Below, one piece after another: positions 28,270 through 48,512 of a stretch of 63,917 bases of DNA. The notes under the pieces were generated by a model. The model saw only the letters and a list, made by a program, of their open reading frames with translations, was not told the DNA's origin and did not search any database. Every line of letters starts with the position of its first letter. Position 1 is the stretch's first letter. This DNA comes from Candidatus Dormiibacterota bacterium. GTDB taxonomy: Bacteria > Chloroflexota > Dormibacteria > Aeolococcales > Aeolococcaceae. The translations under genes were made by a program, and so were the position numbers. The stretch is taken from contig JBAPWO010000138.1 in NCBI GenBank assembly GCA_049283735.1, positions 1 to 63,917 on the forward strand, given 5' to 3'.

Positions 28270-28332
28270 GTGTCGAGTCTATCCTCTGGAGCTGCCGGAC
28301 ACGACATCCGCTTTGAGGAGGATCCGCCGACC

Positions 28333-30832: not shown

Positions 30833-31315
30833 GTGCCCAACTTGCGTTTCGCACATGGCGTCGACCGCGCGTCGACGCCCACGGCCGCCGGCGTCGACGA
30901 CGTCCCGTTCGAGCCACTGGTTCGGCGGCTGCGCATCCGTCGCGGCGGCCCCCGCACGCCGTTGCCATTGCTGCCGGTGATCGCGATCGCCGCCGGGATC
31001 GGCATCGCGTACGTCAACCAGACGGCGCACGTCACCACGGCCACCTACCAGGCCACACGCCTCGCCTCCCAACAGCAGCAGCTCGTCGCCCAGGACTCGC
31101 AGCTCGGCGCTGAGCTCTCCCGCCTGCAGTCGTCGGAGCGGATCATCTTCGCGGCTCAGGGGATGGGCATGCGCCCGGCTGGGAAATGGGCGTACGTCGT
31201 CTCAGCGCCGCATAACGTGCTCACGTCGCCACCCGCCGAGCAGCTCACCGGCAGCGACACCAACGGCACCCTGCAGCAGCTGATCGGCGCACTCGACGGC
31301 GCCTGGGGTCGATGA
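30833..31315 (+). CDS. ftsL: FtsL-like cell-division protein (single TM plus coiled coil)
   Basis: GTG 30833 preceded by GGAGATCAGGG, inside track ORF 30515..31315. An alternative GTG 30677 overlaps the rsmH stop. TM helix LPLLPVIAIAAGIGIAYV, then a Gln/Leu-rich coil. Assigned from position and topology rather than strong sequence similarity. Confidence 0.5.
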   Translation: MPNLRFAHGVDRASTPTAAGVDDVPFEPLVRRLRIRRGGPRTPLPLLPVIAIAAGIGIAYVNQTAHVTTATYQATRLASQQQQLVAQDSQLGAELSRLQSSERIIFAAQGMGMRPAGKWAYVVSAPHNVLTSPPAEQLTGSDTNGTLQQLIGALDGAWGR

Positions 31316-33084
31316 ATCCTCGCCGCGGCACGCCGGGATCGGCACGGTCGGCGCACGCGCACGCGCTCTCCGACGCACCCGATCTGCGGCGTCGCGGGCT
31401 CTGGCTGGTGCTCGCGTTCCTCGCCATGGCAACCGCCGTCTTCGGCCGCCTGGTGCAGGTCCAGGTGATCCAGGGGAAGGCGCTCGCCCGCGCCGCGGCC
31501 GCGTCGCACACGACGTCGATCACGCTGCACGCCACTCGCGGGTTGATCCTCGACCGTAACGGACGCGTCCTGGTGAGCAACGTCCAGGTCTTCGACGTGT
31601 TCGCCGATCCGGCGCTCGTGCCGGCCGCGGATCGCGTGCAGGTGGCGGGCATGCTCGCCCCGATCCTGCAGCTCACGGCGAGCCAGGTCCTGCGCGTGCT
31701 CACTCAGCCCAACCAGTTCGACTACCTCGCCAAGGGCGTCTCCCAGGATGTCAACGACAAGCTCCAGGCACTCGGCCTCAGCGGTGTCGGCACCATCCCT
31801 TCCGAGCAGGCCGTCTACGATCCGTCGCCCGTGCCCGGCGATTCGTTCGCCGCCAACCTGCTCGGCTTCGTCAACGCCGGCGGTGTCGGTCAGTACGGTC
31901 TCGAGGGGTACTACAACTCGATCCTGTCCGGCGTCACCGGACACGAGTCCACCCTGACCGACGTCAACGGCAACGCCATCGTCCTCGGCAGGCAGCAGAT
32001 GGTTCCTGCTAAAAATGGCGATAACCTGCAGCTCGGGCTCGACTCGCAGATCCAGTACTGGGCCGACCTGGCGATCGCTAACGGGGTGAACTCGTCGAAG
32101 TCCACGTCGGGCACCCTGATGATCATGGACACCAAGACCGGGGCGATCGACGCCTGGGCCCAGTACCCGTCGTACAACGCCAACGACTTCGCCTCCGCGA
32201 GCATCGCGGATTTCCGCGACCTGGCGGTGACCCAACCCTACGAGCCCGGTTCGATCATGAAGGTCATCACCTTCGCGGGCGGTCTCAACAACAACGCCTT
32301 CACCCCGAGCACGGTCATCGACGAGAAGCAGCAGCGGATCGATGGATACCTCATCCATGACTGGGATCGGAAATCGCATGGCAACGTCACCATGCAGTGG
32401 GTGCTCGACGACTCACTGAACAACGGGGCCATCGACGCCGAGAAGATGGAAGGCCAGAACGCGTTCTACAACAACCTGCTCGCCTTCGGGATCGGCGCCC
32501 CCACCGGGATCGACCTGGCCGGCGAGGTCAACAACCCACTGGCGCCGACGTCGTCGTGGAATGACCTGCGGTACGCGGAGGCGTCCTTCGGGCAGGGGCT
32601 CGTGACCACGCCGGTGGAGATGCTGGCCGCGGTGAACGCGGTCGCCAACGGCGGCATCTGGGTGCAGCCGCACGCCGTCGATGCCGTCGTCAACCCCAAC
32701 ACTGGCAAGGCCACGCCATTCGTGCCGGTGACCCGCCGTGTCATCTCCGCCGCCGCCGCGACGACCCTCGCGCACATGATGGTGGGTGTGGTGAACGACC
32801 CCGGCGGCGAGGGCAAGCGGGCAAAGATCCCCGGCTACAGCATGGAGATCGCGGGCAAGACCGGGACGGCTCAGGTCGCGCTCCCCAACGGGGGAGGGTA
32901 CGGCCCCAACGTGGTGGCGTCCTTCGTGGGCTTCCTACCGGTCACCAACCCGCGGTTCACCATGATGGTGATCCTGAACAACCCACAGGTGAGCGCCGGT
33001 AACCGGTTCGGCTCCATCCTCGCCGCGCCGATCTGGAAGCAGATGGCCGAGATGATGATCGACGACTGGCGCATCGAACCGTGA
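31312..33084 (+). CDS. ftsI: Class B penicillin-binding protein (FtsI-type transpeptidase)
   Basis: 590 aa, ATGA overlap with ftsL. N-terminal TM helix, SxxK as SIMK, SxN as SLN, KTG as KTGTA. Confidence 0.85.
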   Translation: MNPRRGTPGSARSAHAHALSDAPDLRRRGLWLVLAFLAMATAVFGRLVQVQVIQGKALARAAAASHTTSITLHATRGLILDRNGRVLVSNVQVFDVFADPALVPAADRVQVAGMLAPILQLTASQVLRVLTQPNQFDYLAKGVSQDVNDKLQALGLSGVGTIPSEQAVYDPSPVPGDSFAANLLGFVNAGGVGQYGLEGYYNSILSGVTGHESTLTDVNGNAIVLGRQQMVPAKNGDNLQLGLDSQIQYWADLAIANGVNSSKSTSGTLMIMDTKTGAIDAWAQYPSYNANDFASASIADFRDLAVTQPYEPGSIMKVITFAGGLNNNAFTPSTVIDEKQQRIDGYLIHDWDRKSHGNVTMQWVLDDSLNNGAIDAEKMEGQNAFYNNLLAFGIGAPTGIDLAGEVNNPLAPTSSWNDLRYAEASFGQGLVTTPVEMLAAVNAVANGGIWVQPHAVDAVVNPNTGKATPFVPVTRRVISAAAATTLAHMMVGVVNDPGGEGKRAKIPGYSMEIAGKTGTAQVALPNGGGYGPNVVASFVGFLPVTNPRFTMMVILNNPQVSAGNRFGSILAAPIWKQMAEMMIDDWRIEP

Positions 33085-34040
33085 GGGAGACCATCCTCCT
33101 CGGGGTAATCGCCTTCGTGGCGGGTGTGGTCCTGTATCCAGCGTTCATCGGCCTGCTGGTGCGGTTCGGGGCGCGTCAGCACGTCGCCTCATACAGTCCG
33201 GCGAGCCACCGCGCCAAGGAGGGAACACCGACGCTCGGCGGTGCGCTGTTCTGCCTGGTGGTGCTCGTCGCCTGGCTCGCCGTCGATCGCTCCCGCCAGG
33301 GCTTCATCCCGCTCTTCGCGCTACTCGCCGGGGCAATCGCGGGCGGCCTCGACGACATCGTCAACATCAACGACGCCGGGCGGCTCGGGCTCTCGGTGTG
33401 GCAGAAGCTCGGTCTTCAGGGCGTCACCGGCGTGCTCGTCGGGGTCGGGCTGACCATCGCCGGGTTCACCCATCAGTTCTTTCCCGGGCTCGGCGCGCCG
33501 AACCTCGGCTGGGGTCTGGCCGTGGTGGTGGCGATCGCGGTCGTCGCCACCAGCAACGCCGTCAACCTCACCGACGGTGTCGACGGCCTCGCCGCGTCAT
33601 GTACGTCGCTCGTGCTCGTCGGCATCACGATCATCGCGGTGATGCGAGGCGACCACTCGGTCGCGATCCTCGCCGCGGCACTCGCCGGGTCAGTGGCCGC
33701 ATTCCTGCTCTTCAACTGGTTCCCGGCCCGGGTGTTCATGGGTGACGCGGGGTCGCTTGCTCTCGGATCCGCCATCGTGGCGCTGTCCGCGGAGTTGCAC
33801 CTCATCTGGTTGCTCCCGGTGCTCGGCATCGTCTTCGTTGTCGAGGCGGCGAGCGTCGTGGTCAACGTCACCGCGATACGAAGGTTCGGCACTCGCGTGC
33901 TGCGCGCGAGCCCGATCCACCATCACTTCGAGGAGCTCGGGCTCCGGGAGCAGCGACTCGTCGCGGCCTTCGCAGCGGCGGCGGCGGCCGGCGCGGCGAT
34001 CACCGTGCTGTTCGCGCGCGTCGCCGGGCCGGCGTCGTGA
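33081..34040 (+). CDS. mraY: Phospho-N-acetylmuramoyl-pentapeptide transferase
   Basis: 319 aa, GTGA overlap with ftsI. NLTDGVDGLA, MGDAGSLALG, PIHHHFE. Confidence 0.9.
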   Translation: MRETILLGVIAFVAGVVLYPAFIGLLVRFGARQHVASYSPASHRAKEGTPTLGGALFCLVVLVAWLAVDRSRQGFIPLFALLAGAIAGGLDDIVNINDAGRLGLSVWQKLGLQGVTGVLVGVGLTIAGFTHQFFPGLGAPNLGWGLAVVVAIAVVATSNAVNLTDGVDGLAASCTSLVLVGITIIAVMRGDHSVAILAAALAGSVAAFLLFNWFPARVFMGDAGSLALGSAIVALSAELHLIWLLPVLGIVFVVEAASVVVNVTAIRRFGTRVLRASPIHHHFEELGLREQRLVAAFAAAAAAGAAITVLFARVAGPAS

Positions 34041-36696: not shown

Positions 36697-37711
36697 GGAC
36701 GAGGTGGCCGTGGTCGGCCGCCGGGACGGGGTGGCCGAGCGCCTCGTGGTCGCAGCCGGGCTTCACCTCGAGACCCTCGACATCAGTGGAGTCGATGTCG
36801 GCAGCGCCGGAGGCGTTGCCCGCGCCACGACCCAGTTGACGCGGGCCACCATCGCCGCGCGCCGGCTGCTGCGCCGGATGCGGCCCGACGTCGTCGTCGG
36901 CGTCGGGGGGTATGTGTCCGTCCCCGTGGTGGTGGCAGCGCTCGCCCAGCGCATCCCGGTGGTGTTGCTCGAGCAGAACGCGGTACCCGGCCGGGCGACC
37001 CGGATGCTCGCCCGTCGAGCCAGGGTCGTCGCCGCCTCGTTCGCGGAGACGGCGGCGCATCTTCCCCACGCCCGGGTCGTCCATACCGGCAACCCGGTTC
37101 GCGCCGAGATCCGCGCGATCACCGCCCGTCCCATCGGCGACCGGCTTCGCTCGATCCTCGTCACCGGTGGGTCCCAGGGCGCGAGGCGGCTCAATCGAGC
37201 CGTGGCCGGATGCATGGTCGAGCTGCTCAGCGCCGACCCGGAGCTGAGCATCGTCCACCAGTGCGGCAGCCTCGACTACGCCGCCGTGGAGCGCGCCGCC
37301 GCGGCGCTTCCCCCGCGGCTGGCCACCAGGTACACCGCCGGCGCCTTCTTCGACGACATGGCGGAGCGGATCGCGCAGAGCGATCTCGTGGTGATGCGGG
37401 CCGGGGGATCGTCGATCGCCGAGTGCGCGGCGCTCGGCCGCCCGATGATCGTGGTCCCGTACCCGCATGCCGGCGGGCATCAGCGCCACAACGCCGCCCC
37501 CTACGTCGCGGCAGGTGCCGCGATGCTCATCGACGACGCCGAATGCACCCCCGAGCGGCTCCGGGCCGAAATCACCGGGCTGGTCTCCGACCCGTCGCGG
37601 TGGCGATCGATGGCAGCCGCGAGCGCGGCCCTCGGCCTTCCGCACGCCACCGACTCGGTGATGCGGCTCATCGTCGAGGCAGCGGGGCCGACCCGGAGCC
37701 AAGCCGCCTGA
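36608..37711 (+). CDS. murG: UDP-GlcNAc:lipid I N-acetylglucosaminyltransferase
   Basis: GTG 36608 in track ORF 36521..37711. N-terminal G-loop GGGTGGHLTPALAV. Confidence 0.85.
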   Translation: MRTLIAGGGTGGHLTPALAVALALRSDRPEDEVAVVGRRDGVAERLVVAAGLHLETLDISGVDVGSAGGVARATTQLTRATIAARRLLRRMRPDVVVGVGGYVSVPVVVAALAQRIPVVLLEQNAVPGRATRMLARRARVVAASFAETAAHLPHARVVHTGNPVRAEIRAITARPIGDRLRSILVTGGSQGARRLNRAVAGCMVELLSADPELSIVHQCGSLDYAAVERAAAALPPRLATRYTAGAFFDDMAERIAQSDLVVMRAGGSSIAECAALGRPMIVVPYPHAGGHQRHNAAPYVAAGAAMLIDDAECTPERLRAEITGLVSDPSRWRSMAAASAALGLPHATDSVMRLIVEAAGPTRSQAA

Positions 37712-37713
37712 CG

Positions 37714-39114
37714 ATGCACGTGCACGTTCTCGGTATCTGCGGCTACGCGACCTTCGGCGCGGCAAACCTCGCCCGCGAGCGCGGCGACCTGGTGACCGGC
37801 TCCGACGACCACGCCTATCCGCCCATGAGCGATGCGGTGATCGCCGCCGGGATCGAATGGGAGAACCACAGCGACCCGGCCAATCTCGATCGGTGGGGTG
37901 TTCCCGATCTCGTCGTGGTCGGCAACCAGACGCGCCCGGCCAACCTCGAGCTCGAGGCCGTGCGCCGGCGCGGTATCCCGTGCGTCAGCGAGATCGAGTT
38001 CTACGTGGCCCTCGCCGGCGACCGCTCCCGGCTCACCGTCTGCGGCACCCACGGCAAGACCACCACGGCGGCGCTGCTGGCCCACATCCTCGATCGCGCT
38101 GGTTTGGATCCCGGCTTCCGTCTCGGCTCCACATCGCTCGACCTGGGTGGCACCTCGAGACTGGGCACCGGGCCGTTCGTGTTCGAGGGCGACGAGTACA
38201 CGTCGGCACCGTGGGATCCACGCCCGAAATTCCTGCACACCAGGCCGAACGGTGCGTGCGTCACCCGCCTGGAGCTGGATCACCCCGACGTCTACGCAAG
38301 CCTCGAGGCGTACCGCGCGCCGTTTGTCGAGCTGGCCGCGACCATGCCATCGGACGGGGTGCTCGCGCTCTGCGCGGACGACCCCGAATGCCTCGCCCTG
38401 CGCGACGCGGCGACCGCTGTTGCTGTCACCTATGGCACGAAGGCGGGGAGCGACTGGTTGATCCGGCATCCCCACGAGCAGGACGGCATGCAGCGCTTCC
38501 GCGTCGAGCGGAACGCCGGGGCACCGCTCGACGTGGTCCTCACGTTCCCCGGGCTCCACAACGCGCAGAACGCCTGCGCGGCGCTCATCCTCGCCGAGTT
38601 TGCCGGTGTCGACCCGGCGATCGCGATGGGCGCGTGCGCGGACTTCCGCGGGCCCGCGCGCCGATTTCAGATCCTCGGCGAGGTTGCGGGCGTGGCGGTC
38701 GTCGACGACTACGCGCACCATCCGACCGAGGTCGGCGCCGCGATCGACGCCGCGCGGGAGCGCTACCCGGGACGCCGCCTGATCGCCATACACACACCGC
38801 ACACCTACTCGCGCGTCAGCCGGCTGCTCGAGGATTACCGGCGCAGCTTCACCGGCGCCGACGTGGTGATCATCGGACCGATCGAGGAGGCCCGCGAGCG
38901 TGGCATGCCCAGGACCGTGTCGAGCCGGGACGTCGCCGATCGCGCCGGGCCGTCTGACGCCGTCCACGTGGCGGCATCGAGCGACGAGGCGCTCGACATG
39001 GTCACGCGGATCGCTCGGCCCGGTGATGTGCTCCTGGTGCTCTCCCTTGGGGGCTTCGACAAGCTGGCGCCGCGGCTCCGCGATGCCCTGGAGGCTCAGG
39101 GTGTCCGCAGGTGA
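37714..39114 (+). CDS. MurC/Mpl-family Mur ligase in the murC position, with Mpl-like signatures
   Basis: ATG 37714 in track ORF 37210..39114. HVLGICGYATFGAANLA...VTGSDDHAYPPMS, GTHGKTTT, FEGDEYTSAPWDPRPKFLHTRP, LELDHPDVY, DDYAHHPTEV. See findings. Confidence 0.8.
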   Translation: MHVHVLGICGYATFGAANLARERGDLVTGSDDHAYPPMSDAVIAAGIEWENHSDPANLDRWGVPDLVVVGNQTRPANLELEAVRRRGIPCVSEIEFYVALAGDRSRLTVCGTHGKTTTAALLAHILDRAGLDPGFRLGSTSLDLGGTSRLGTGPFVFEGDEYTSAPWDPRPKFLHTRPNGACVTRLELDHPDVYASLEAYRAPFVELAATMPSDGVLALCADDPECLALRDAATAVAVTYGTKAGSDWLIRHPHEQDGMQRFRVERNAGAPLDVVLTFPGLHNAQNACAALILAEFAGVDPAIAMGACADFRGPARRFQILGEVAGVAVVDDYAHHPTEVGAAIDAARERYPGRRLIAIHTPHTYSRVSRLLEDYRRSFTGADVVIIGPIEEARERGMPRTVSSRDVADRAGPSDAVHVAASSDEALDMVTRIARPGDVLLVLSLGGFDKLAPRLRDALEAQGVRR

Positions 39115-40021
39115 CTGGCTCGACACGTATCCGCGTGTGCTCGTCAACGAGCCTCTCGCGCGCCACAGTCAGTTCGGTGTCGGCGGTCCGGCGGACTGGT
39201 TCATCACCACCCGAGACGTCGCCGTGCTCGCTGAGCTGCTGCGCCGCTGCACCGCTTCCGGGATCTCGGTGACCATGGTCGGAGCAGGCAGCAACGCGCT
39301 CATCAGCGACTCGGGCATCCAGGGACTTGTGGTGCGCCACAACGATCGCCGCGTCCGGGTCGCCGATGCGCACACCATCGAGCTGGGCGGGGGCTGCATG
39401 ATGCCGCGCGTGGCACTCGACTGCGCGTCGCGCGGCCTTGCCGGACTCGAGTTCGGCATCGGCGTGCCGGGCACGTGCGCCGCAAGCGTGTTCGGCAACG
39501 CGGGCGCCTTCGGAACCGAGGTGGCTGACGTGCTGATCGACTGCACGTCGCTGAGTCCGAGCGGGGAGCCGCTGACACTCCCGGCGGCGGCGTGCGGCTT
39601 CAAGTACCGGCACTCCCGCTTCAAGGACGACCTTCGCGGCCATGCCATCGTCAGCGCGCGGCTGCGCGTCCATGAGGACGACCCCGACCGCGTTCGCGAG
39701 CGCACCGATTCGATCCAGGCGGAGCGCAAAGCGTCGCAGCCATACGGGATTCGCAGCCTCGGCAGCGTCTTCAAGAATCCGCCCGATGACCGGGCCGGGC
39801 GGCTCATCGAGGCGGCCGGCCTCAAGGGGCGACGATCCGGCGGTGCGCAGATCTCACCGAAACATGCGAACTTCATCGTCAACGTCGACCAGGCCACCGC
39901 CGCGGACGTCCTGAATCTCGTCCGCGTCGCGCACGACGCTGTCCACGAGCAATTCGGCGTCGATCTCGAGCGGGAGATCATCGTCCTCGGCGGACTGGAA
40001 CCGGGCGATCACCATGACTGA
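39101..40021 (+). CDS. murB: UDP-N-acetylenolpyruvoylglucosamine reductase
   Basis: GTG 39101 in track ORF 38900..40021, with a 14-nt overlap with the upstream gene. FAD-binding FGVGGPADWF and GAGSNALI. Confidence 0.85.
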   Translation: MSAGDWLDTYPRVLVNEPLARHSQFGVGGPADWFITTRDVAVLAELLRRCTASGISVTMVGAGSNALISDSGIQGLVVRHNDRRVRVADAHTIELGGGCMMPRVALDCASRGLAGLEFGIGVPGTCAASVFGNAGAFGTEVADVLIDCTSLSPSGEPLTLPAAACGFKYRHSRFKDDLRGHAIVSARLRVHEDDPDRVRERTDSIQAERKASQPYGIRSLGSVFKNPPDDRAGRLIEAAGLKGRRSGGAQISPKHANFIVNVDQATAADVLNLVRVAHDAVHEQFGVDLEREIIVLGGLEPGDHHD

Positions 40022-41207
40022 GCAGGTCAAGGTCGGCGTCTTCTTCGGCAGCCGGTCGGTCGAGCACGAGGTGTCGGTCATCACCGCGCAGCAGGCGATG
40101 GCGGCCATGCCCGCGGATCGCTTCGTGCCCGTACCCGTGTACATCGCGAAGTCGGGCGCGTGGTACACCGGCGACCCGTTGCTCCAGCTCGACCGCTACA
40201 AGGACATCGATCGGCTGATCGCGGCGTCGACGAGGGTCACCATGCGCCCCGACCCGTCCAGCGGCGGGGAGCTCATCGAGGTCGAAACCCGCCGCGGGCT
40301 GCTCGGAGGATCCGCTCGCACGGCGGCGCGCTTCGACGTTGCGATGCCGCTCGTGCACGGGTCCAACGGTGAGGACGGCACGCTCCAGGGCCTGTTCGAG
40401 CTGGCGGCACTGCCGTACTGCGGATGCGACGTCGTGTCGGCGGCGGTGAGCATGGACAAGCGCATGTCTCGAACCACGCTCCGCGGGGCGGGCATTCCCG
40501 TGCTCGACGACGTGATGGTCTCGCGCGCTCGCTGGCTCGAACACCCCGACGACGTTCGCGCGCGACTCGCGGAGCGTCCCGGATTCCCCATGTATGTGAA
40601 GCCGCGCCGCCTCGGGTCGAGCATCGGTGTGGCCCGTGTGGACGGTGACGCAGCGCTGCGCGATGCGCTCGAGGTCGCCTTCAGCTACGACACCTCGATT
40701 CTCGCCGAGCAGGCTCAGGACGGCAGCATCGAGGTCAATTGCTCCGTGCTCGGGTGGGGCGACGATGTTCGGGCGTCGGTATGCGAGCAACCCGTGAGCA
40801 GTGGCACGCTCAGCTATGCCGACAAATATCTGAGCGGCGCCAAGGGAAAGGGCGGTGCCAAGGCACCGGCGTCCGGGATGAAGAGCTCACAGCGAATCAT
40901 CCCCGCACCCATATCCGACTCGCTCACCAGCCGGATCCAGGACGCGGCGATTTCATCGTTTCGCGCCATCGGCGCCGCCGGCGTGACACGGGTCGACTTC
41001 CTGGTCTCGCCGGAGCGGGATTCCTTTGTCGTCAACGAGTTGAACACGCTCCCCGGCTCACTGTCCTTCTACCTCTGGGAAGCATCCGGACTGCGCTTCG
41101 ACGCCCTGCTCGTCCGCCTCATCGAGATGGCGATGGCGCGCCATCGCGAGCAGCAGGCAACCACATCGTCAATCGAGACGTGGCTGCTCACCGGCCGGCC
41201 GGGCTGA
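40014..41207 (+). CDS. ddl: D-alanine--D-alanine ligase family (ATP-grasp), long form with an internal Gly/Lys-rich insertion
   Basis: 397 aa, 8-nt overlap with murB. VGVFFGSRSVEHEVS, HGSNGEDGTLQG, NELNTLPG. Confidence 0.85.
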   Translation: MTEQVKVGVFFGSRSVEHEVSVITAQQAMAAMPADRFVPVPVYIAKSGAWYTGDPLLQLDRYKDIDRLIAASTRVTMRPDPSSGGELIEVETRRGLLGGSARTAARFDVAMPLVHGSNGEDGTLQGLFELAALPYCGCDVVSAAVSMDKRMSRTTLRGAGIPVLDDVMVSRARWLEHPDDVRARLAERPGFPMYVKPRRLGSSIGVARVDGDAALRDALEVAFSYDTSILAEQAQDGSIEVNCSVLGWGDDVRASVCEQPVSSGTLSYADKYLSGAKGKGGAKAPASGMKSSQRIIPAPISDSLTSRIQDAAISSFRAIGAAGVTRVDFLVSPERDSFVVNELNTLPGSLSFYLWEASGLRFDALLVRLIEMAMARHREQQATTSSIETWLLTGRPG

Positions 41208-41229: not shown

Positions 41230-42021
41230 GTGAGCATCGCCGGGGCCGCCGGAGAGATCCCGCGCGCGGCGTTGGAGCAGCGGGGCAACGGCCGGCCACT
41301 GTTGCTCCTCCACGGCTGGGGCGTGTCGTCCGAGCTCTTCGCCCCGATTCTCGACGGGCTGCAGGCGGGAAGCCGCCTGATCGTCCCCGACCTGCCCGGG
41401 TTCGGCGCCACGGCGGAGCCGGACGCTCCCTGGTCGGTGCACGAGTATGCCGCCTGGTGCATCGCGCTGCTCGACCGGCTTGGGGTCGACAGCTGCGACC
41501 TGGTCGGACATTCGAACGGCGGCCGGATCGGGATCGTCATCGCCGCCACGTACCCCGGACGGGTGCGGCGGATGGTGCTGACGGGAAGCGCCGGCCTCCG
41601 GCCGCGAAGGACGTTGCGCGGCGCCGCGCGGGTCCGATGGTACAAGGCGCTCCGAGCCCTGCAGCGGTCGGCGGTGATGCCCGAGGCGTTGCGCCGCGCT
41701 GCCGGCCGCAATGCCGACCAGCGCGGCTCCGCGGACTATCGCGCGGTGTCGGGGGTCATGCGCGGCACGCTCGTCCGCATCGTCAACGAAGACCTCCGAC
41801 CACTCCTTCCCACCCTCGACCTTCCGGTCCTGCTCATCTGGGGGGACCACGACACCGAGGCGCCGGTCGAGGACGGCCGGGTGATGGAGCGCCTCATCCC
41901 CGACGCCGGGCTGGTCGTGTTCGAGGGCGCGGGTCACTTCGCGTACCTCGAGCAGCCTGGACGCTTCTGCCGGATCGTCGGCGTCTTCCTGCGTGACCAG
42001 CTGGACGAGGGCTCGGCGTGA
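41230..42021 (+). CDS. Alpha/beta hydrolase embedded in the dcw cluster
   Basis: 263 aa, GTG start 22 nt after the ddl stop. HGWG oxyanion region, nucleophile elbow GHSNGG, and a C-terminal GAGHFAYLE (catalytic His region). Confidence 0.75.
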   Translation: MSIAGAAGEIPRAALEQRGNGRPLLLLHGWGVSSELFAPILDGLQAGSRLIVPDLPGFGATAEPDAPWSVHEYAAWCIALLDRLGVDSCDLVGHSNGGRIGIVIAATYPGRVRRMVLTGSAGLRPRRTLRGAARVRWYKALRALQRSAVMPEALRRAAGRNADQRGSADYRAVSGVMRGTLVRIVNEDLRPLLPTLDLPVLLIWGDHDTEAPVEDGRVMERLIPDAGLVVFEGAGHFAYLEQPGRFCRIVGVFLRDQLDEGSA

Positions 42022-43682
42022 GCCCGCTCGTCGGCCCGCTGGTCGCGCTTGCGGCGATCGTCTGGCTCATCCTCATCTTTCGGATCGTCCTCGTCGCGGC
42101 TCGGATGTTCCAGATCGAGGAGTACGAATCGGTTCGCTTTCTGCGCTGGGGGCTGACCCGCGAGTGGCTTGCCCATCGCGCGGTCTGGCTCGGTCTCCTG
42201 GTTGGAGCAGTGGGGCTCAGCGTCGCGGCCGTGCTCCCCGCGGCGCGACCGATCGGCATCGCGATCGCGTGGCTGGCGTCGGCCGCGGCGGCGCAGTTCA
42301 CGTGGCGATGGACGTCGCCCAAGCGACCGCTGGTGATGACCGCCCGGATGCGCCGCCTGCTCATCGCCGGCGGATTCCTCGCGGTGGTGCTCGCCGCCGG
42401 GCTTGCGCTCGGCATCGTCACCCTGCACCCGGTCATCTCCGCGATCCTCGTGCTGATCGCAGGCGGCGTGGTCACCGCCCTCAGCGAGATCCTCCTGGTT
42501 GCTGCCAATGTCGTCACCAAGCCGGCGGAGGCGCGGATCCGCCGCCACTATCTCGGGCTCGCCGCAGCGCGAATGAAGATCGTCGACCCGGTCGTCGTCG
42601 CCGTGGTCGGCAGCTTCGGCAAGACCAGCACCAAGCACATCCTCGCGCAGCTGCTGCAACCGAGTGTGAACACGCTGCCAACGCGAAAGAGCTTCAACAC
42701 GCTGATGGGCGTGACCCGGGTGATCAACGAGGATCTCACCCCCGGGCACCGGGTTTTCATCGTCGAGATGGACGCGTATGCGCAGGGCGAGATCGCGGCG
42801 ATGAGCGACCTCGTGCACCCGCGGATGGCGATCATCACCGCCATCGGCCCCCAGCACATGGAGCGCTTCGGCACCATCGAGCGAATCGCCGCCGCGATGT
42901 ATGAAGTCGCGAGCGCGCTGCCGGCCGATGGGACATTGATTGTGTACACCGGTGACCAGGCCGGCGCCGTGCTCGCAGCGCGGGCGCGGGCGGACCAGCG
43001 TCAGCTGATCCGCTATGCGCTCGCCGATGACGCCGAGACGGTGGACGCCGACGTCGTCGCGTCATCCATCCGGATCGATTCGCACGGTGGCGCATTCCGC
43101 TGGCGTTGGGACGCCGAGGGCCTCGACCGCGAGGTGACGATTCCGCTGCTCGGACGCCACCAGGTTGCCAACGTGAGCGCGGCGCTGGCCGCGGTCCGCA
43201 CGCTCGGGTATTCGATCGACGACGCGATCACCGCCGCCGCCTCACTCGAGCAGGTCGAGCACCGACTCCAGTTGATGGCCAGCGCAGGTCCGCTCACGGT
43301 GATCGACGACTCGTACAACGCCAACCCGGTCGGCGTCCACAACGGCCTGGAGGTGCTCGCCGCCATGAGCGGGGCTCAGAAATTCCTGGTCACGCCCGGG
43401 CTCGTCGAGCTGGGCAGCGTCGAGACCGAGGAGAACCGGCGCTATGGCGAGCACGCGGCGAAGGTGTGCGACCACGTGATCGTCATGTCCGCCAAGACGA
43501 GCGCGGCGCTGTGCGCCGGTTTGCGCGACGGCGGCATGAGCGAGGATCGTATTCACGTGGTCGAAACCCTCGACGAGGCGACGACGCTGCTCCGGCGGCT
43601 GTCGCGCCCCGGGGACGTCGTGCTCTTCGCCAACGATCTCCCCGACACATATCTGCCCGTGGCGCGCGCACCTCGCGCGTAG
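42018..43682 (+). CDS. MurF-type Mur ligase with an N-terminal polytopic membrane domain
   Basis: 554 aa, GTGA overlap with the hydrolase. aa 1-165 are about five hydrophobic helices. The P-loop GSFGKTST is at aa 198-205 (nt 42609). Then FNTLMGV, IVEMDA, ITAIGPQHMERFG, DDSYNANP. See findings. Confidence 0.75.
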   Translation: MSPLVGPLVALAAIVWLILIFRIVLVAARMFQIEEYESVRFLRWGLTREWLAHRAVWLGLLVGAVGLSVAAVLPAARPIGIAIAWLASAAAAQFTWRWTSPKRPLVMTARMRRLLIAGGFLAVVLAAGLALGIVTLHPVISAILVLIAGGVVTALSEILLVAANVVTKPAEARIRRHYLGLAAARMKIVDPVVVAVVGSFGKTSTKHILAQLLQPSVNTLPTRKSFNTLMGVTRVINEDLTPGHRVFIVEMDAYAQGEIAAMSDLVHPRMAIITAIGPQHMERFGTIERIAAAMYEVASALPADGTLIVYTGDQAGAVLAARARADQRQLIRYALADDAETVDADVVASSIRIDSHGGAFRWRWDAEGLDREVTIPLLGRHQVANVSAALAAVRTLGYSIDDAITAAASLEQVEHRLQLMASAGPLTVIDDSYNANPVGVHNGLEVLAAMSGAQKFLVTPGLVELGSVETEENRRYGEHAAKVCDHVIVMSAKTSAALCAGLRDGGMSEDRIHVVETLDEATTLLRRLSRPGDVVLFANDLPDTYLPVARAPRA

Positions 43683-43921
43683 AGCGGTCACGCCGGCTTC
43701 GCCTGGGAGATAATCGGCGCGGCCCGGGCGGCCATAGCGTCTCAGCACACGTCTCAGCCTGCGTATATGCAACGTCCTCACCGCACAAAGCACGCCCTGT
43801 GAGCACCGAGGTGCTCGACGAGCGCTCGCGCCATGTCGCTCTGGTTCGCGCCCAGGCGGCGCTCATCGCCGATTCGTCGCGCGCCGTGCGCCGTTTGGTG
43901 GTGAGCCCCGGAGCGAAGCTC

Positions 43922-44920
43922 ATGTCGTCGCCGCGCAAACGGCGTCACGCGCGCCGCGGCCCGCCGCCGCCGCCACAGGTGGCCCGGCGGCACACCTCCT
44001 GGAGACGGCGGCTGATCGCGGCCGCGGCGCTCACGGTGCAGGTCGGCCTCCTGGCACTGGCGCTGACGCTCCCGGGGTTCCAGGTGCGGCGGGTGACCGT
44101 GGTCGGCACCCACCTGCTCACCACCGGCGCCGTGGTCGCTGCGGCCGAGGTGCCCGAGCAGAGCATCTTCACGATCAACGGCGCGGCGATCCAGGGCCGC
44201 GTGCAGTCGCTGCCCTGGGTCGCCAGCGCGATGGTCACCACCGAGCTTCCCGCCACCGTGGAGATCTCGGTCGTCGAACGCGCGCCGATGCTCCGCATCC
44301 GCCGTGACGGCACCGACACGCTGATCGCCTCGGACGGAGCCACGCTTCCCGGGATCGATGCGACCCCGGCGGCGCGAAGCGGCATCCCGGTGCTGATCGA
44401 TGACCGCGCCGGGTCCGCGCAACCGATCGACCCCCTGCTGGTCCAGCTGCTCGGTTCCATCGCTCAACGCTTCCCGCCGGTCTTTGGCTGCCCGGTTGCC
44501 GCGTACCTCTGGGGGGCCGACGACGTGGTCAGCCTCTGGACGAGCACCGGATGGCGTGCGGTGCTGGGCCACCTCGACAACGAGGACGCCATGCGCGCTC
44601 TCCCCGCGCAGATCGAGACGCTGGCCGCCCTCAAGGGCCGGCTCAACTTCGTCAAGCCCACCTTCGGCTACGTCGACGTCGAGGCCCCCGCCTACCCGGT
44701 CAGCGGCGGCCACCCGGGCCTCCCGGCCGAGGTGACCGCAGCGCTCCTTCCGGTCGCACCCACGACCCAGCTGCCGCCGGCGGCGTCCGCCGTGGCTCCG
44801 CCCACGGCGCCGCCGACCCCCCGTCCGACCCCGACTCCGTCGCCGTCGCCGAGCGTCAGCCCGGCCTCTGGGATCACGCTGGTCACCCCGCCGGCGAGCA
44901 CGCCCACGGCGCCACCCTGA
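43922..44920 (+). CDS. ftsQ: Cell-division protein FtsQ (TM plus POTRA) with a Pro/Thr-rich C-terminal tail
   Basis: ATG 43922 (alternative GTG 43799) in track ORF 43106..44920. Basic N-terminus, TM helix LIAAAALTVQVGLLALALTL, POTRA-like FQVRRVTVVGTHLL. The tail is PPTAPPTPRPTPTPSPSPS. Confidence 0.7.
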   Translation: MSSPRKRRHARRGPPPPPQVARRHTSWRRRLIAAAALTVQVGLLALALTLPGFQVRRVTVVGTHLLTTGAVVAAAEVPEQSIFTINGAAIQGRVQSLPWVASAMVTTELPATVEISVVERAPMLRIRRDGTDTLIASDGATLPGIDATPAARSGIPVLIDDRAGSAQPIDPLLVQLLGSIAQRFPPVFGCPVAAYLWGADDVVSLWTSTGWRAVLGHLDNEDAMRALPAQIETLAALKGRLNFVKPTFGYVDVEAPAYPVSGGHPGLPAEVTAALLPVAPTTQLPPAASAVAPPTAPPTPRPTPTPSPSPSVSPASGITLVTPPASTPTAPP

Positions 44921-44977: not shown

Positions 44978-44995
44978 ACGCCCCTGTCGGGGTGT
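44978..44995 (-). terminator. Hairpin adjacent to the metF stop (7-bp stem including one G-U pair)
   Basis: acgCCCCtgtcGGGGtgt, read directly, between the convergent ftsQ and metF. Confidence 0.35.
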
Positions 44996-45885
44996 TAGCG
45001 CACGCGGTCCCAGGGGCGCGCCGCCCGCAACGCCGAGAGGATCGCGCGTGTCGCCGGCGAGCGATTCATCGTGTAGAAATGCACGCCGGGTGCACCCCCC
45101 GCGAGCAGCTCGGCGCACTGGAGCGTGGCCCACGCCACCCCCAGCTGCAGCACCGCCTCGGGGTCGTCCTCGCGAGAGCGCAACGCCTCGAGGAGCGGCT
45201 CCGGGATGCTGGCGCCGATCTTCAACGTGAATCGGCGGATCTGGCCGACGTTGGTGACCGGCATGATGCCCGGGATGATCGGCACGGTCACCCCGGCGGC
45301 GCGCGCCCTCGGCACGAAATCGAAGTACGCCCGGTTGTCGAAGAAGAGGTTCGTGATCAGGTAGCTGGCGCCCGCGTCCTCCTTGCGCTTCGCGGAGCGG
45401 ACGTCCTCGTCGGCGTCCACCGACTCCGGGTGCTTCTCGGGGTAGCAGGCGCCGCCGACGCAGAACCCGTATCGCGCCGTGATCAGCTCCATCAGCTCGC
45501 TGCCGTGGGCGAGCCCGCCCGCACTGGCGACGAAGCGGTCGACACCGTCCGGGGGATCACCGCGCAGCGCGAGCACGTTGTCGATCCCCGCGTCGCGCAG
45601 CCCGTTGAGGATGCCCTGCAGGTCGTCGACGGTCGCGTCGACGCAGGTGAGGTGCGCGACCGGCTCGATGTCGAGCTCTCGACGGATGCGGGTCACGAGG
45701 TCGACGGTGCGCGTGCGCACCGAGCCCCCGGCGCCATACGTCACCGACACGAACGTCGGCTCCAGCTCACGCAGGTGTGAGATCGCCTCGAAGAGCTGGC
45801 GCACGCCGTCGTCGGTCTTCGGAGGAAAGAACTCGAACGAGAAGACGGGCTGCCGGCGGCCTTCGAGGACGGTGTCGAGACGCAT
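44995..45885 (-). CDS. metF: 5,10-methylenetetrahydrofolate reductase
   Basis: ATG 45885 (or 45897) inside track ORF 44995..47304. FSFEFFPPKT, VSVTYGAGG, LALRGD, YPEKHPE. Confidence 0.9.
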   Translation of the reverse strand: MRLDTVLEGRRQPVFSFEFFPPKTDDGVRQLFEAISHLRELEPTFVSVTYGAGGSVRTRTVDLVTRIRRELDIEPVAHLTCVDATVDDLQGILNGLRDAGIDNVLALRGDPPDGVDRFVASAGGLAHGSELMELITARYGFCVGGACYPEKHPESVDADEDVRSAKRKEDAGASYLITNLFFDNRAYFDFVPRARAAGVTVPIIPGIMPVTNVGQIRRFTLKIGASIPEPLLEALRSREDDPEAVLQLGVAWATLQCAELLAGGAPGVHFYTMNRSPATRAILSALRAARPWDRVR

Positions 45886-45912
45886 GGTGACCACCATGCT
45901 ACGGTCCGCCAA

Positions 45913-46956
45913 ATGCTTGCGGTGTACGCGTCGGCGGTCGGCGGCGATGACCCGCTGGCGAATCTCGCCGTCGGCGACCTGCCGGCACCGGTGCCGCGAG
46001 CGGGCTGGGCCCGGGTCAAGGTGCGTGTCGCATCGCTGAACCACCACGACATCTGGACCCTGCGCGGCGTGTCCTCGTCGGAGGTCACCCCGCCGCAGAT
46101 CCTCGGCTGCGACGCTGCCGGCGAGGTCGACGGGTACGGCGGCGAGCCGCCATCGGGCGCGCCGGCGGTGGGGGCGAGGGTCGTCGTCTACCCGATCGTC
46201 ACCTGCGGACAGTGCCCGGCCTGCCTCGCCGACGAGCCGCTGGGCTGCCGGTCCTTCCGCATGCTCAGCGAGGCACCACTCGGCGGTGCGCTCGCAGAGT
46301 ACGTCGAAATCCCGGTCGCGAATCTCGTCGCGCTGCCCGACCAGGTCAGCTTCGCCGACGCGGCATGCCTGCCCACCGCCTACCTGACCGCATATCGAGC
46401 GCTCTTCGTTCGGGCCGCTCTGCGGCCCGGGATGAGCGTGCTCGTGCAGGGGGCAAGTGGCGGCGTCGCAACAGCGTGCATCCTGCTCGGACGGCTCGCA
46501 GGCATCACTGTCTATGCGACGTCGCGCGATGAGGCGAAACGGGCATTCGCCGTCGACCTCGGCGCCGAGGCGGCGTTCCCGGTGGAACGCCAGACGGCGC
46601 GTGCGGTCGTCGGTGCGACCGGCGGCATCGGCGTGGACGCCGTCGTCGACACGGTCGGCGAGCCGACCTGGGACCTGAGCCTCCGCGCGGTGAAACCGGG
46701 GGGCGTCGTCGTCGTCCCGGGATCGACCGGCGGTCCGAACCCGCCGGCGCAGCTCAACCGGATCTTCTTCAGAAGCCTCACCATCGCCGGAACCACGATG
46801 GGAAGTCGTGGCGAGCTGCGACGCTTGGTCGATCTGACCGCCACCGGCGCGCTCCGCCCCCTGATCGGATCGACGCATCCGCTGGGCGACGCCGCACGGG
46901 CGTTTGCCGAGATGGCGAGCGGCGACCTGCGCGGGAAGATCGTTCTCGAGGTGTGA
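45913..46956 (+). CDS. Zinc-type alcohol dehydrogenase/quinone oxidoreductase (MDR superfamily)
   Basis: 347 aa. Structural-zinc-like CGQCPACLADEPLGC. Nucleotide site VQGASGGVA. Confidence 0.8.
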   Translation: MLAVYASAVGGDDPLANLAVGDLPAPVPRAGWARVKVRVASLNHHDIWTLRGVSSSEVTPPQILGCDAAGEVDGYGGEPPSGAPAVGARVVVYPIVTCGQCPACLADEPLGCRSFRMLSEAPLGGALAEYVEIPVANLVALPDQVSFADAACLPTAYLTAYRALFVRAALRPGMSVLVQGASGGVATACILLGRLAGITVYATSRDEAKRAFAVDLGAEAAFPVERQTARAVVGATGGIGVDAVVDTVGEPTWDLSLRAVKPGGVVVVPGSTGGPNPPAQLNRIFFRSLTIAGTTMGSRGELRRLVDLTATGALRPLIGSTHPLGDAARAFAEMASGDLRGKIVLEV

Positions 46957-46961
46957 GCACA

Positions 46962-46981
46962 CGCGGCGAAGACCCGCCGCG
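46962..46981 (+). terminator. Hairpin after the dehydrogenase gene (7-bp stem, 6-nt loop)
   Basis: CGCGGCG-aagacc-CGCCGCG, starting 6 nt after stop 46956. Confidence 0.35.
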
Positions 46982-47276
46982 AAGCGTAGACGCCATGGAC
47001 GCGCGGTGTTACGGTTGCCCGGCTTCAGCGGTCCAGTGACCGCGGCGGACGGGGCCTCGTCCAGAAGGTGCAGTGGCGAGGTCCTGTCCGCGTCTCCAGG
47101 GTTGGTTGGAGACGGGTGCTCCGATCTCCGGAGCCCGGGGTTTGACGGGCCCCCGCCTCTCGAGGACAACCAACATGTTGTGGCATACTGGGCGTGCGAA
47201 CCCAGCATCTTGCGGTTTTGCGCCTGAAAACCCTTGTAGGGCGCACCCGCGACGGCTACACTCGGAGACCGATACA

Positions 47277-48512
47277 GTGACCCGTCCTCGCCGCGTCTTC
47301 GCACTCGATCTCGGAACCACCAAAGTCTGCTGCGCCGTCGCAGACCTTGAGACCACCGGTCTCCGAGTCCTGGGTGTCGGTATGGTCGCGTCGAGGGGGG
47401 TTCGCAAGGGGGCCGTCGTCGAGATCGACCGGGCTGCCGAGGCGGTCGCCGAGGCGGTCGACATGGCCGAGCAGATGTCCGGGGTGGCGATCGACTCCGC
47501 CGTGGTCGGGATCGCCGGCGGGCACATCACGTCGCAGAACAGCCGTGGCGTCGTGGCCGTCGAGGCGGGCCACCGCGAGGTTCGCGACCAGGACGTGCAT
47601 CGCGCCATCGACGCCGCGCGCGCGGTGAGCGTGCCCTCCGAGCGGCGCATCGTGCATGTGCTGCCGCAGCAGTTCACCATCGACGGGCAGGAGGGCGTGC
47701 GCGACGCCATCGGCATGGCCGGGAACCGGCTCGAGGTCGACGCGCACATCATCACCGGTGCCAACACCGCGATCCAGAACGTCGTCAAGGTCGTGCACAA
47801 GGCCGGACTCAACGTCGACGACATGGTGTTGCAGGTGCTCGCATCCGCTGAAGCGGTCGTCACCGAGGACGAGATCGAGCGCGGCGTCGTGGTGGTCGAC
47901 GTCGGCGGTGGTACCAGCGATATCGCGGTCTTCGCACGCGGCAGCATCGTGCACACCAGCGTGATTCCGGTCGGCGGCAACCACGTGACCGCGGACCTCG
48001 CGGTCGGGTTGCGCTGCGACCTCGAGACCGCCGAAACCGTGAAGCGCAACTTCGGTCACTGTCTGCAGCTCACGCTGCCCGCCGACGCGGAGGTGACCCT
48101 GACGCCGATGGGCTACGACGAGCCGGTCGGTGTGCCGCAACGCTATCTCGCGGAGATCATCGGGCCGCGCGCACGCGAGATGGCGTCGCTGATCGCCGCC
48201 GAGGTGGAGCGGGCCGGACCGCTCGGCATGTTCCCAGGTGGCATCGTGATCACCGGCGGGGGCGCGCTGCTCCGCGGGTTCGCGGAGATGGTGCAGCAGC
48301 AGACCAATCTTCCCGCGCGCGTCGCCGCACCGCAGGGATTGCACGGCATGAACGACGAGATCCGCGGGCCGAGTCACGCGACCGTGGTCGGTCTGCTGCG
48401 CTGGGGAGCCCGGAGCAACCTCGGACGCAAACCCTCGCGCTCCAACGGCAAGAGCTCGGACGGCCCTGCCGCCGGAGTCAAATTCTCGAGGTGGTTTCGT
48501 GACCTATTTTGA
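47277..48512 (+). CDS. ftsA: Cell-division protein FtsA
   Basis: GTG 47277 in track ORF 47073..48512. Actin-fold phosphate motifs ALDLGTTKV and [14 protein letters not shown]. Confidence 0.85.

Follow-up and report, generated by a model that had tools for sequence, protein, structure and literature searches.

The 63,917-nt stretch of a Candidatus Dormibacterota genome analysed here (the window; GC content about 69%) encodes a 554-aa ligase in which the ATP-binding and C-terminal domains of MurF are joined to a membrane domain of five predicted transmembrane (TM) helices that replaces the UDP-binding domain 1. MurF is an essential soluble textbook enzyme of a cytoplasmic step in cell wall synthesis and a long-standing antibiotic target. 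A preliminary description of the window had proposed a MurF-type ligase with a polytopic membrane domain instead of domain 1. Our analysis supports this proposal and the fusion is real. Because the ligase domains are MurF-like, the dipeptide supplier (D-alanine--D-alanine ligase, Ddl) is encoded close by and murF is replaced in place, the ligase quite probably carries out the MurF function, working at the inner face of the membrane. The fuller proposal, that it is the D-Ala-D-Ala-adding enzyme of the Dormibacterota cell in an uncharacterised variant of MurF and acts by the whole mechanism outlined below, has by our reading of the sequences an even chance of being correct.

Ligase domains related to MurF

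42018..43682, plus strand: TM-MurF-type ligase, one open reading frame (ORF) with a GTG start, 554 aa
42609..42632, plus strand: P-loop GSFGKTST, aa 198-205
43305..43328, plus strand: DDSYNANP, start of the C-terminal domain, aa 430-437, a motif also of Escherichia coli MurF

The ligase is encoded by a single uninterrupted ORF of 554 codons, as first described, and its GTG start (42018-42020) overlaps the TGA stop (42019-42021) of an upstream alpha/beta-hydrolase ORF in the sequence GTGA, which agrees with the earlier reading. A GAGG-type site is located a few bases 5' of the GTG. The P-loop and the MurF-like motifs FNTLMGV, IVEMDA, ITAIGPQHMERFG and DDSYNANP are all found in the 554-aa translation at the positions originally given. 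All members of the family, and E. coli MurF as well, have GSFGKTS, E250 and H280, and D430-N436 is invariant in an alignment that includes E. coli MurF, to which it is identical. Pfam matches of the ligase comprised Mur_ligase_M (residues 196-393, E = 4.9e-34) and Mur_ligase_C (residues 415-538, E = 5e-16), as had been expected. The N-terminal Mur ligase domain PF01225 had no match in the ligase, and the same scan matched PF01225 in the MurC of the window.

A sequence search against the PDB returned MurF (4cvk, E = 1.9e-39; 1gg4, E = 1.1e-33), MurC (E = 6e-10) and MurE (E = 3e-7). The preliminary description had raised the possibility that residues 1-190 align to MurF domain 1 or are soluble. 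This was not found, as the solved MurFs align only from their own residue ~82-90 onward, that is, beyond domain 1. The top NCBIfam model was murF (TIGR01143) with 203.4 bits over profile positions 60-403 of 418. Foldseek aligned the predicted structure with 4qf5 at E = 1e-25, a TM-score of 0.70 and a root-mean-square deviation of 2.8 A. The nine best Foldseek matches were all MurF, the best ones from Acinetobacter baumannii, Pseudomonas aeruginosa, Thermotoga maritima and E. coli, and covered the two ligase domains only. In the ligase region, 33% of residues are identical with E. coli MurF, and a Streptomyces MurF2 reaches 37% against the same E. coli protein. Both ligase domains, central and C-terminal, are thus MurF-like in sequence and predicted fold.

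Like the canonical MurFs of E. coli (1GG4), A. baumannii (4QF5) and P. aeruginosa (4CVK/4CVM), the window protein has the ATP-binding and C-terminal domains with the P-loop, Glu, His and DDSYNANP, and it shares their association with ddl and the dcw cluster. Unlike them, it has five TM helices for domain 1, the motif ENDLPDxY for KGSR, and an alpha/beta-hydrolase partner. Other Mur-type families match far less well. The MurT-type models NF052464 and NF045635, with a cutoff of 800 bits, gave 26 bits (E = 4e-6) and 17 bits, respectively. Neither a DUF1727 domain (Pfam) nor a PgsB-type family was among the Pfam and NCBIfam matches of the ligase.

Membrane domain

42018..42512, plus strand: membrane domain with five predicted TM helices, replacing MurF domain 1, aa 1-165 (hydropathy, AlphaFold2, positive-inside rule)
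42102..42173, plus strand: cytoplasmic loop 1, Q32-x-E-x-Y36 ... R40 ... W44, aa 29-52, with amphipathic helix 38-47
42303..42356, plus strand: cytoplasmic loop 3, basic motif K-K-P-L-V-x-T108-x-R110-x-x-R113, aa 96-113
43632..43652, plus strand: C-terminal motif N-D-L-P-D-T-Y specific to this family, aa 539-545, aligned with KGSR of E. coli MurF

The five N-terminal hydrophobic stretches noticed earlier were recovered by hydropathy (Kyte-Doolittle windows above 1.6 at residues ~1-34, 51-87 and 111-167) and by an AlphaFold2 model built on 35 sequences (predicted local distance difference test, pLDDT, 86.5; predicted template-modelling score, pTM, 0.81). The model places helices at residues 5-33, 53-72, 74-95, 109-135 and 138-189, near the five first reported, and a short amphipathic helix at 38-47. 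In 38 divergent members, the predicted cytoplasmic segments carry on average 3.9, 5.2 and 5.0 Lys and Arg residues, and the three outward segments, 2-3 residues in length, 0.1 each. The predicted topology has the N-terminus outside, five TM helices and the C-terminus inside. Since the outward segments are so short, nothing would be displayed outside the cell. We considered whether the N-terminal part derives from MurF domain 1 by divergence or represents some other known domain. This was ruled out, because there is no Pfam match and Foldseek matches the ligase domains only. Likewise, at a threshold as loose as E<5, Pfam matched none of the membrane domains of six divergent members.

In alignments of 35-38 members with 30-58% identity, Q32 and Y36 in loop 1 and T108, R110 and R113 in loop 3 are invariant, as is P169, where the chain leaves the membrane. 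Conservation is at least 90% at R40 and W44 (loop 1) and at K102, L105 and V106 (loop 3). The invariant residues of the membrane domain are all on its predicted cytoplasmic face, and the TM helices are poorly conserved, being kept only in hydrophobicity. In the AlphaFold2 model, the long TM5 helix (138-189) continues from the membrane directly into the ligase domain, and the loop motifs adjoin the point where it enters. Because the helices are kept only in hydrophobicity and the cytoplasmic motifs are invariant, the membrane part appears to be more than a tether and to anchor and support a basic juxtamembrane platform that is conserved. This platform, as modelled, looks to occupy the place of MurF domain 1. 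At the other end of the protein, N539, D540, L541 and D543 are invariant in the C-terminal motif, the family form of which is ENDLPDxY. Residues from 541 on have pLDDT below 50 and are predicted to be disordered in the monomer, and the tail may be a partner-binding or lid element. The window protein has all the family motifs (QxExY, KKPLVxTxRxxR and NDLPDxY) as well as the hydrolase and ddl neighbours.

The number of helices varies in the family. A 495-aa variant of the Scalindua type lacks the TM2-TM3 hairpin, so that three helices are left and the loop 1 and loop 3 motifs are joined directly. It is represented by P0369 from the anammox bacterium Candidatus Scalindua rubra and by the related 495-aa clusters P0347, P0358 and P0374. 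Some representatives of ~400 aa retain the last helix only; these may have mis-called starts.

The membrane domain bears on a different possible acceptor. In a re-ordered pathway, D-Ala-D-Ala would be added to a lipid-linked tripeptide (undecaprenyl-PP-MurNAc-tripeptide, lipid I or II; MurNAc, N-acetylmuramic acid) after transfer by MraY, and the basic juxtamembrane motifs would hold the pyrophosphate-sugar head group at the membrane surface. The complete loss of the UDP-binding domain 1 and the integral membrane module with basic and polar invariant residues at the membrane-cytoplasm interface both speak for such a pathway, which we consider rather unlikely. The poor conservation of the TM helices and the dispensable TM2-TM3 hairpin argue against it, since they give no sign of a conserved intramembrane groove that binds polyprenyl. 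Moreover, the known enzymes acting on lipid I or II (MurG, MurT/GatD and Fem) work without a TM domain.

Reality and spread of the fusion

The fusion could also be an artefact, produced by mis-assembly, by a frameshift that joined a membrane-protein gene to a truncated murF, or by a start called too far upstream. A GC content of 0.69 does yield long spurious ORFs, and there are many antisense ORFs among those of the window. However, the closest homologues (77-100% identity) are 549-564 aa long and, coming from independent assemblies, form more than 120 protein clusters. Those with names are from metagenome-assembled genomes (MAGs) of Candidatus Dormibacteria/Dormibacterota, and some are on contigs of 1-3.3 Mb. 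Against an artefact also speak the persistence of the architecture down to 30% identity, low-GC taxa and isolates included, and the confidence of the AlphaFold2 model across the domain boundary. Compared with the orthologue in locus L001, the ratio of nonsynonymous to synonymous changes (pN/pS) is 0.13 for codons 2-180 and 0.16 for the ligase part, and GC at third codon positions (GC3) is 0.88 in frame. Judging from these ratios, purifying selection acts on the membrane part. The N-terminal domain is also conserved in low-GC Bacillota and in Bacteroidota. The recurrence in over 120 clusters and on large contigs, the divergent relatives and the pN/pS ratio rule out an assembly, frameshift or false-start artefact, whose probability we regard as negligible. 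The concern raised in the preliminary description that two genes had been joined was therefore not borne out.

A homologue search covered 1.8 billion representatives at 50% identity, of which the best 150 matches were taken. Nearly all of these are 510-570 aa long and align from about residue 8-30 to residue 545 of the query, membrane domain included, at identities down to 31%. Hundreds of assemblies carry the TM-MurF architecture. The 445 sequences that we collected form at least 147 clusters at 60% identity, and the family extends over well over ten phyla. We further scanned one genome per GTDB species, which gave 80 loci, with the gene callable in 75; taxon labels of MAGs are those of the depositors. 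The loci are from Dormibacterota, Ktedonobacterales, other Chloroflexota, Poribacteria, Bacteroidota, Bdellovibrionota, Terriglobia, Spirochaetes, Chlamydiae, a genus of Coriobacteriia and others, and from many Bacillota, including Gracilibacillus massiliensis, Peptoniphilus stercorisuis and a Pseudalkalibacillus isolate. The cassette is also present in MAGs labelled Tenericutes and Erysipelotrichaceae. Further names in the family are Anaerolineaceae, Nitrospinota, Entotheonellaceae and the anammox genus Scalindua. Locus L005 (4.8 kb, labelled Candidatus Acidiferrales) has the order ddl-hydrolase-ligase-ftsQ, as in Dormibacterota, and a ligase with 61% identity to the window protein; its label may reflect mis-binning.

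The preliminary description had left open that this exact architecture is common and already characterised as ordinary MurF. It is common, forming a large family in many phyla, but its characterisation amounts to automatic "MurF" labels. The source label is uniformly "UDP-N-acetylmuramoyl-tripeptide--D-alanyl-D-alanine ligase", including RefSeq proteins of isolates (WP_058308014.1, WP_073203250.1 and WP_210061564.1). In the full-text literature searched, which did not cover all journals, and in a survey of Mur chimeras, we found neither a membrane-integral MurF nor a hydrolase-ligase-Ddl cassette described. The architecture is apparently undescribed but widespread.

Position of the gene in dcw clusters

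33081..33084, plus strand: ftsI/mraY junction, a 4-nt overlap of ORFs 31312..33084 and 33081..34040
43799..44920, plus strand: ftsQ (POTRA domain, Pfam POTRA_1), the next downstream gene, probable GTG start at 43799; orthologues of 371-375 aa in L001-L003

The order of dcw genes in the window is mraW, an ftsL-like ORF, ftsI, mraY, murD, ftsW, murG, murC, murB, ddl, hydrolase, ligase and ftsQ. The ligase gene was first described as located behind ddl and outside the usual murE-murF position, and this is confirmed, ddl (40014-41207) and then the hydrolase gene preceding it. Since ftsI and mraY overlap by 4 nt, the usual murE-murF slot is empty in the window. The same ftsI/mraY junction is present in L001 and L002, and the same gene order is found on a 3.34-Mb Dormibacterota contig and in two other assemblies. 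To ask whether a murE or a canonical murF is hidden in the 64-kb window, all its stop-to-stop ORFs of at least 100 codons were searched by phmmer with the three Mur ligases of the window. Only MurC, MurD and the TM-ligase were recovered, which rules this out. No MurE-like ORF is present in the 64 kb, and murE is likewise missing in the Dormibacterota loci L001, L002 and L006. A canonical murF was found neither in the 64-kb window nor within 10 kb in the 80 genome loci and four megabase contigs. The ddl of the cassette is the only one in the dcw cluster of the window.

In six loci of other lineages, the cassette is located exactly in the murF slot of a dcw cluster that is standard in all other respects, in the order mraW-ftsL-ftsI-murE-(hydrolase-TM-ligase-ddl)-mraY-murD-ftsW-murG-murC. 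These are L008 and L010 of Poribacteria and the contigs L088-L091 (4.0-5.8 Mb), which carry four different clusters of the family and in which the gene cluster continues into ftsQ-ftsA. Other arrangements are hydrolase-ligase-mraY in L067 of Chloroflexota, a cassette among dcw genes in L034 of Bdellovibrionota, and ftsI-murE-(152 aa)-mraY...murB with an abutting hydrolase-ligase pair in the MAG L037. No protein in the dcw-associated loci is better matched by E. coli MurF than by the TM-ligase of the window. The position is strong evidence that the TM-ligase supplies the MurF function in the murF-slot lineages, and the empty slot in the window together with the cassette in the murF slot of six loci favours the MurF of the cell over an extra ligase.

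The alternative is an accessory or repair paralogue, with a canonical MurF encoded elsewhere and a cassette that restores the D-Ala-D-Ala ends of precursors that were recycled or damaged. The hydrolase would then shorten stems that are tetrapeptides or wrongly terminated to tripeptide and the ligase would put the dipeptide back, which gives the hydrolase a natural role. The patchy distribution over phyla fits this picture, as do Bacillaceae isolates that carry the cassette where an ordinary ddl-murF pair is expected. So does the cassette itself, which consists of three co-conserved genes with otherwise variable flanks. However, there is no other murF and no other ddl in the dcw cluster of the window and its relatives, and murF is replaced in place in six loci. 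Two MurF systems are also unlikely in the MAGs labelled Tenericutes and Erysipelotrichaceae, if their genomes are reduced as we assume. A further point against is the stable housekeeping neighbourhood of the cassette in Tissierellia, between genes for phosphoglycerate mutase and enolase and that for RNase R (neighbours identified by eye), which suggests vertical inheritance there. We consider a repair function improbable. In L011, L013, L014, L016 and other Tissierellia, the order, read by eye, is gpmI-eno-(small ORF, perhaps secG)-...-hydrolase-ligase-ddl-rnr. This neighbourhood resembles the Bacillus eno...secG-est-rnr region, in which a carboxylesterase gene precedes rnr.

Several other genes surround the cluster in the window. 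After ftsQ come a methylenetetrahydrofolate reductase (MTHFR) gene on the minus strand and an alcohol dehydrogenase gene, followed by ftsA and ftsZ. The MTHFR domain occupies the last 280 aa of a long ORF (44995..47304). The ORF 45913..46956 on the plus strand is a zinc alcohol dehydrogenase by synteny with L001-L003, in which this arrangement is conserved. Upstream of the dcw cluster, 26754-27887 encodes a DUF1028 protein that also has a TPR repeat, and 28054-29037 a peptidase S51 of the cyanophycinase/dipeptidase E family. The murC ORF (37210-39114) starts ~170 codons before the MurC domain and overlaps murG; comparison with L001, where the protein has 467 aa, places the true start close to 37711.

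A cassette of hydrolase, ligase and Ddl

41230..42021, plus strand: alpha/beta-hydrolase, start codon uncertain (Pfam Abhydrolase_1 and Abhydrolase_6)
40014..41207, plus strand: ddl, D-alanine--D-alanine ligase (Pfam Dala_Dala_lig_N and Dala_Dala_lig_C; NF002528, 291 bits, cutoff 262)

The upstream hydrolase had been treated as incidental, and this view has to be revised, as it is an obligate partner of the ligase. An alpha/beta-hydrolase gene is directly upstream of the ligase gene on the same strand in 60 of the 75 loci, with three more loci at contig ends. A ddl is directly downstream in 54 of the 75, and 46 of the 75 have both. Intergenic gaps in the cassette are mostly -4 to +20 nt. The order in Dormibacterota, ddl-hydrolase-ligase, is a rotation of the hydrolase-ligase-ddl order of most other lineages. 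Clustering of 1270 flanking ORFs revealed no co-conserved gene beyond these three, such as a transporter, a glycosyltransferase, murE or a polymer export gene.

Across 61 sequences, the HGW oxyanion motif, the GHSxGG nucleophile elbow (S95), D208 and H236 of the hydrolase are conserved in 93-100%, so that, as judged by alignment, the catalytic triad is intact. The hydrolase also has a near-invariant motif of its own, GS167xD169Y, and the relatives of known structure are limited to generic esterases and meta-cleavage-product hydrolases. Natural fusions with the ligase occur in both orders. P0171, from an 11-member cluster, is a hydrolase-TM-ligase of 864 aa and P0134 a TM-ligase-hydrolase of 869 aa; further ligase-hydrolase fragments are P0379 and probably P0268, and a homologue search with the fusion protein gave one further fragment only. 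In P0171, a basic proline-rich linker and one extra TM helix separate the hydrolase from the first helix of the family. With a five-helix core whose N-terminus is outside, such a helix is required for an N-terminal hydrolase to stay cytoplasmic. A structure model of this fusion confirmed the extra TM helix and gave a pLDDT below 50 for the hydrolase part because of a shallow alignment. In P0134, the hydrolase is attached to the cytoplasmic C-terminus. Therefore, both fusions put the hydrolase in the cytoplasm beside the ligase, and the fusion argues for a coupled step. In L086 (1011-5269), the P0171 fusion gene is followed not by ddl but by a gene for a YkuD-type L,D-transpeptidase, and position 294 of this ligase is Asp. 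The adjoining transpeptidase gene would suit the repair function considered above.

Of 55 cassette Ddls, 53-55 keep the E. coli DdlB residues E15, S150, K215, Y216, R255, D257, E270 and N272. A cassette Ddl making D-Ala-D-Lac or D-Ala-D-Ser is not supported, as E15, S150, K215 and Y216 are of the DdlB type; in contrast, the VanO ligase departs at K215/Y216. The cassette Ddls are long (~390-435 aa), with an insertion of 15-20 residues just after the omega-loop KY, and 52 of 55 have Tyr for Ser281 of DdlB. The insertion and the Tyr may mark a cassette-specific Ddl subfamily.

The composition of the cassette also bears on a non-peptidoglycan acceptor, which is very improbable. Here, D-Ala-D-Ala or another amine would be attached to a capsular or teichuronopeptide-like polymer. 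PgsB/CapB are likewise membrane-anchored Mur-type amide ligases without domain 1, and this parallel together with a score below the curated MurF cutoff speaks for such an acceptor. PgsB has a single anchor at its N-terminus and polymerises glutamate, with PgsC and PgsA as partners. However, the window protein is much closer to MurF, its ligase domains resembling MurF about as much as MurFs resemble each other. In addition, a Ddl of the D-Ala-D-Ala type adjoins, the gene is located in dcw clusters at the murF position, and no polymer-export or glycosyltransferase gene is co-conserved.

Metal site of the ligase

42897..42899, plus strand: Met294, at the position of the carbamoylated Lys (VAKAKGEI of E. 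coli MurF aligns with IAAAMYEV)
42765..42773, plus strand: E250-M-D252, the Mg-binding Glu and an extra Asp; the rest of the family has Gly at 252

In MurD, MurE and MurF, the Lys that follows the HxExFG motif carries a carbamoyl group; its stabilising effect on the second Mg2+ is the reason given for calling it essential (PMC3060825). MurC and Mpl have no carbamoylated Lys and an extra glutamate instead (PMC3060825). Lys294 and Gly252 are kept in 130 of the 147 family clusters. Dormibacterota, Ktedonobacterales and a few relatives have Met, Leu or Ile at 294, and Asp at 252 in 152 of 153 sequences. This pair of a hydrophobic residue at 294 and Asp252 is found in one clade (5 of 147 clusters) and is thus probably the product of one event; covariation of Lys294 and Asp252 in several independent events was ruled out by this restriction. 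Elsewhere in the family, an acidic residue is directly at position 294, Asp in the P0171 clade and Asp or Glu in P0147 and P0250. In our reading, a side-chain carboxylate has repeatedly taken the place of the carbamate in the family, which would imply a compensated, active enzyme and not a dead one. The window clade, with VEMDAY containing Asp252 and with Met294, resembles MurC and Mpl in having no carbamoylated Lys and an extra acidic residue near the Mg-binding Glu. It differs from them in that the extra residue is an Asp two positions after Glu250 in one clade of a Lys-containing family, whereas in MurC and Mpl it is a Glu in an E-x-D-E motif and universal.

Proposed mechanism and acceptor

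We propose the following sequence of steps. Ddl would make D-Ala-D-Ala. The membrane-held ligase would bind the stem-tripeptide precursor on the juxtamembrane platform standing in for domain 1 and would activate its terminal carboxylate with ATP, Asp252 instead of a carbamoylated Lys completing the second Mg2+ site. It would then add D-Ala-D-Ala and release the product beside MraY. The hydrolase would be cytoplasmic and form a 1:1 complex with the ligase. As a working guess of low confidence, it may condition, proofread or trim the C-terminus of the stem peptide.

If the ligase does have MurF function, its acceptor is on balance more probably the UDP-linked one, UDP-MurNAc-tripeptide, because the cassette is then a plug-in replacement for murF plus ddl. 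Furthermore, the repeated displacement of murF in different phyla means that the cassette should work with the existing MraY of the host. As a sole route to pentapeptide, the lipid-linked pathway would require MraY to use the tripeptide nucleotide routinely, and in-slot replacement of murF would be harder. MurT supplies an argument in its favour. This soluble ligase, with a C-terminal DUF1727 and without domain 1, pairs with GatD and acts on lipid II; GatD is a glutaminase supplying ammonia to MurT, and the two form the lipid II isoglutaminyl synthase of Gram-positives. The pairing and fusions observed here are similar, both systems combining a Mur ligase that lacks the UDP-binding N-terminal domain with a neighbouring hydrolytic enzyme at a membrane stage. 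MurT-GatD differs, however, in its weak sequence similarity (26 bits), in that no Ddl is involved, and in that GatD is not an alpha/beta-hydrolase. To our knowledge, the Mur-ligase relatives without domain 1 (MurT, PgsB/CapB and FPGS) use non-UDP acceptors. A different acceptor would also ease the presence of the cassette in lineages that probably keep canonical MurF, e.g. Bacillaceae. The broadest version appears unlikely. In it, entire phyla, among them Dormibacterota, Poribacteria and part of Chloroflexota, would build D-Ala-D-Ala on lipid I/II by a ligase in fixed complex with a serine hydrolase, the latter editing the peptide end. The preliminary description had offered two functions, a membrane-tethered MurF feeding MraY and a ligase for a lipid-linked acceptor; both stay in the lead and are not separated by the data.

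Several points weigh against the assignment of the ligase as the MurF of the cell. No recognisable UDP-binding domain is left in it, its score of 203.4 bits is below the curated TIGR01143 cutoff of 288.6, and the Lys reported to be essential in MurD, MurE and MurF is Met294 in the window protein. Bacillaceae carriers probably have an ordinary murF as well, and a purely redundant role of the cassette alongside it would be odd. Finally, ordinary MurF chemistry requires no serine hydrolase, so that the MurF assignment does not account for the whole system.

Comparison with other Mur ligase assemblies

Natural chimeras of Mur enzymes are known, namely MurE-MurF, MurC-Ddl, MurC-MurB, MurG-MurC and MurD-FtsW (PMC10214165). 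That survey took in only Mur proteins of more than 600 aa, and it lists no MurF with a membrane domain replacing domain 1 and no hydrolase fusion (PMC10214165). The window ligase resembles these chimeras in that a Mur ligase is tied to a neighbouring wall function, and MurD-FtsW does join a ligase to a membrane protein. However, the membrane domain here replaces the substrate domain and is not added to a complete enzyme.

The MurF2 of glycopeptide-resistance clusters is similar in being a second MurF encoded with a Ddl-family ligase and a hydrolase (VanX), the cassette serving to alter how the stem peptide ends. It differs in being soluble with domain 1 and the Lys intact, in a ligase partner that makes D-Ala-D-Lac, and in a hydrolase, VanX, that is a metallo-dipeptidase. 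We looked for a mobile or plasmid-borne form of the window cassette and found no plasmid record with the full-length architecture. The best partial match was a Streptomyces MurF2 beside vanH-vanO-vanX. It is located on a 1.27-Mb plasmid of Streptomyces sp. NBC_01591 (L085, 1766-6263), where vanH-vanO-vanX is accompanied by a divergent gene for a canonical soluble MurF2 of 503 aa that is without annotation in the PLSDB table.

Implications for peptidoglycan synthesis

These results point to a second form of MurF that is membrane-integral, has no nucleotide-binding domain and comes with a serine hydrolase and a dedicated Ddl. The pentapeptide-forming step would thus have an alternative solution that current annotation hides under the name "MurF". 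Since the family is below the TIGR01143 cutoff, surveys using trusted cutoffs would score its carriers as lacking murF. The cultured carriers Gracilibacillus and Peptoniphilus make experiments feasible. The addition of D-Ala-D-Ala, cytoplasmic in textbooks, may here happen at the membrane, which bears on the coupling of cytoplasmic and membrane steps of wall synthesis, so far backed mainly by soluble Mur chimeras. The hydrolase would add an extra enzyme to a pathway thought to be complete. If the re-ordered pathway were true, the ligase would represent more than a MurF moved to the membrane, namely a new membrane step, and the order of steps in peptidoglycan synthesis would differ in some phyla.

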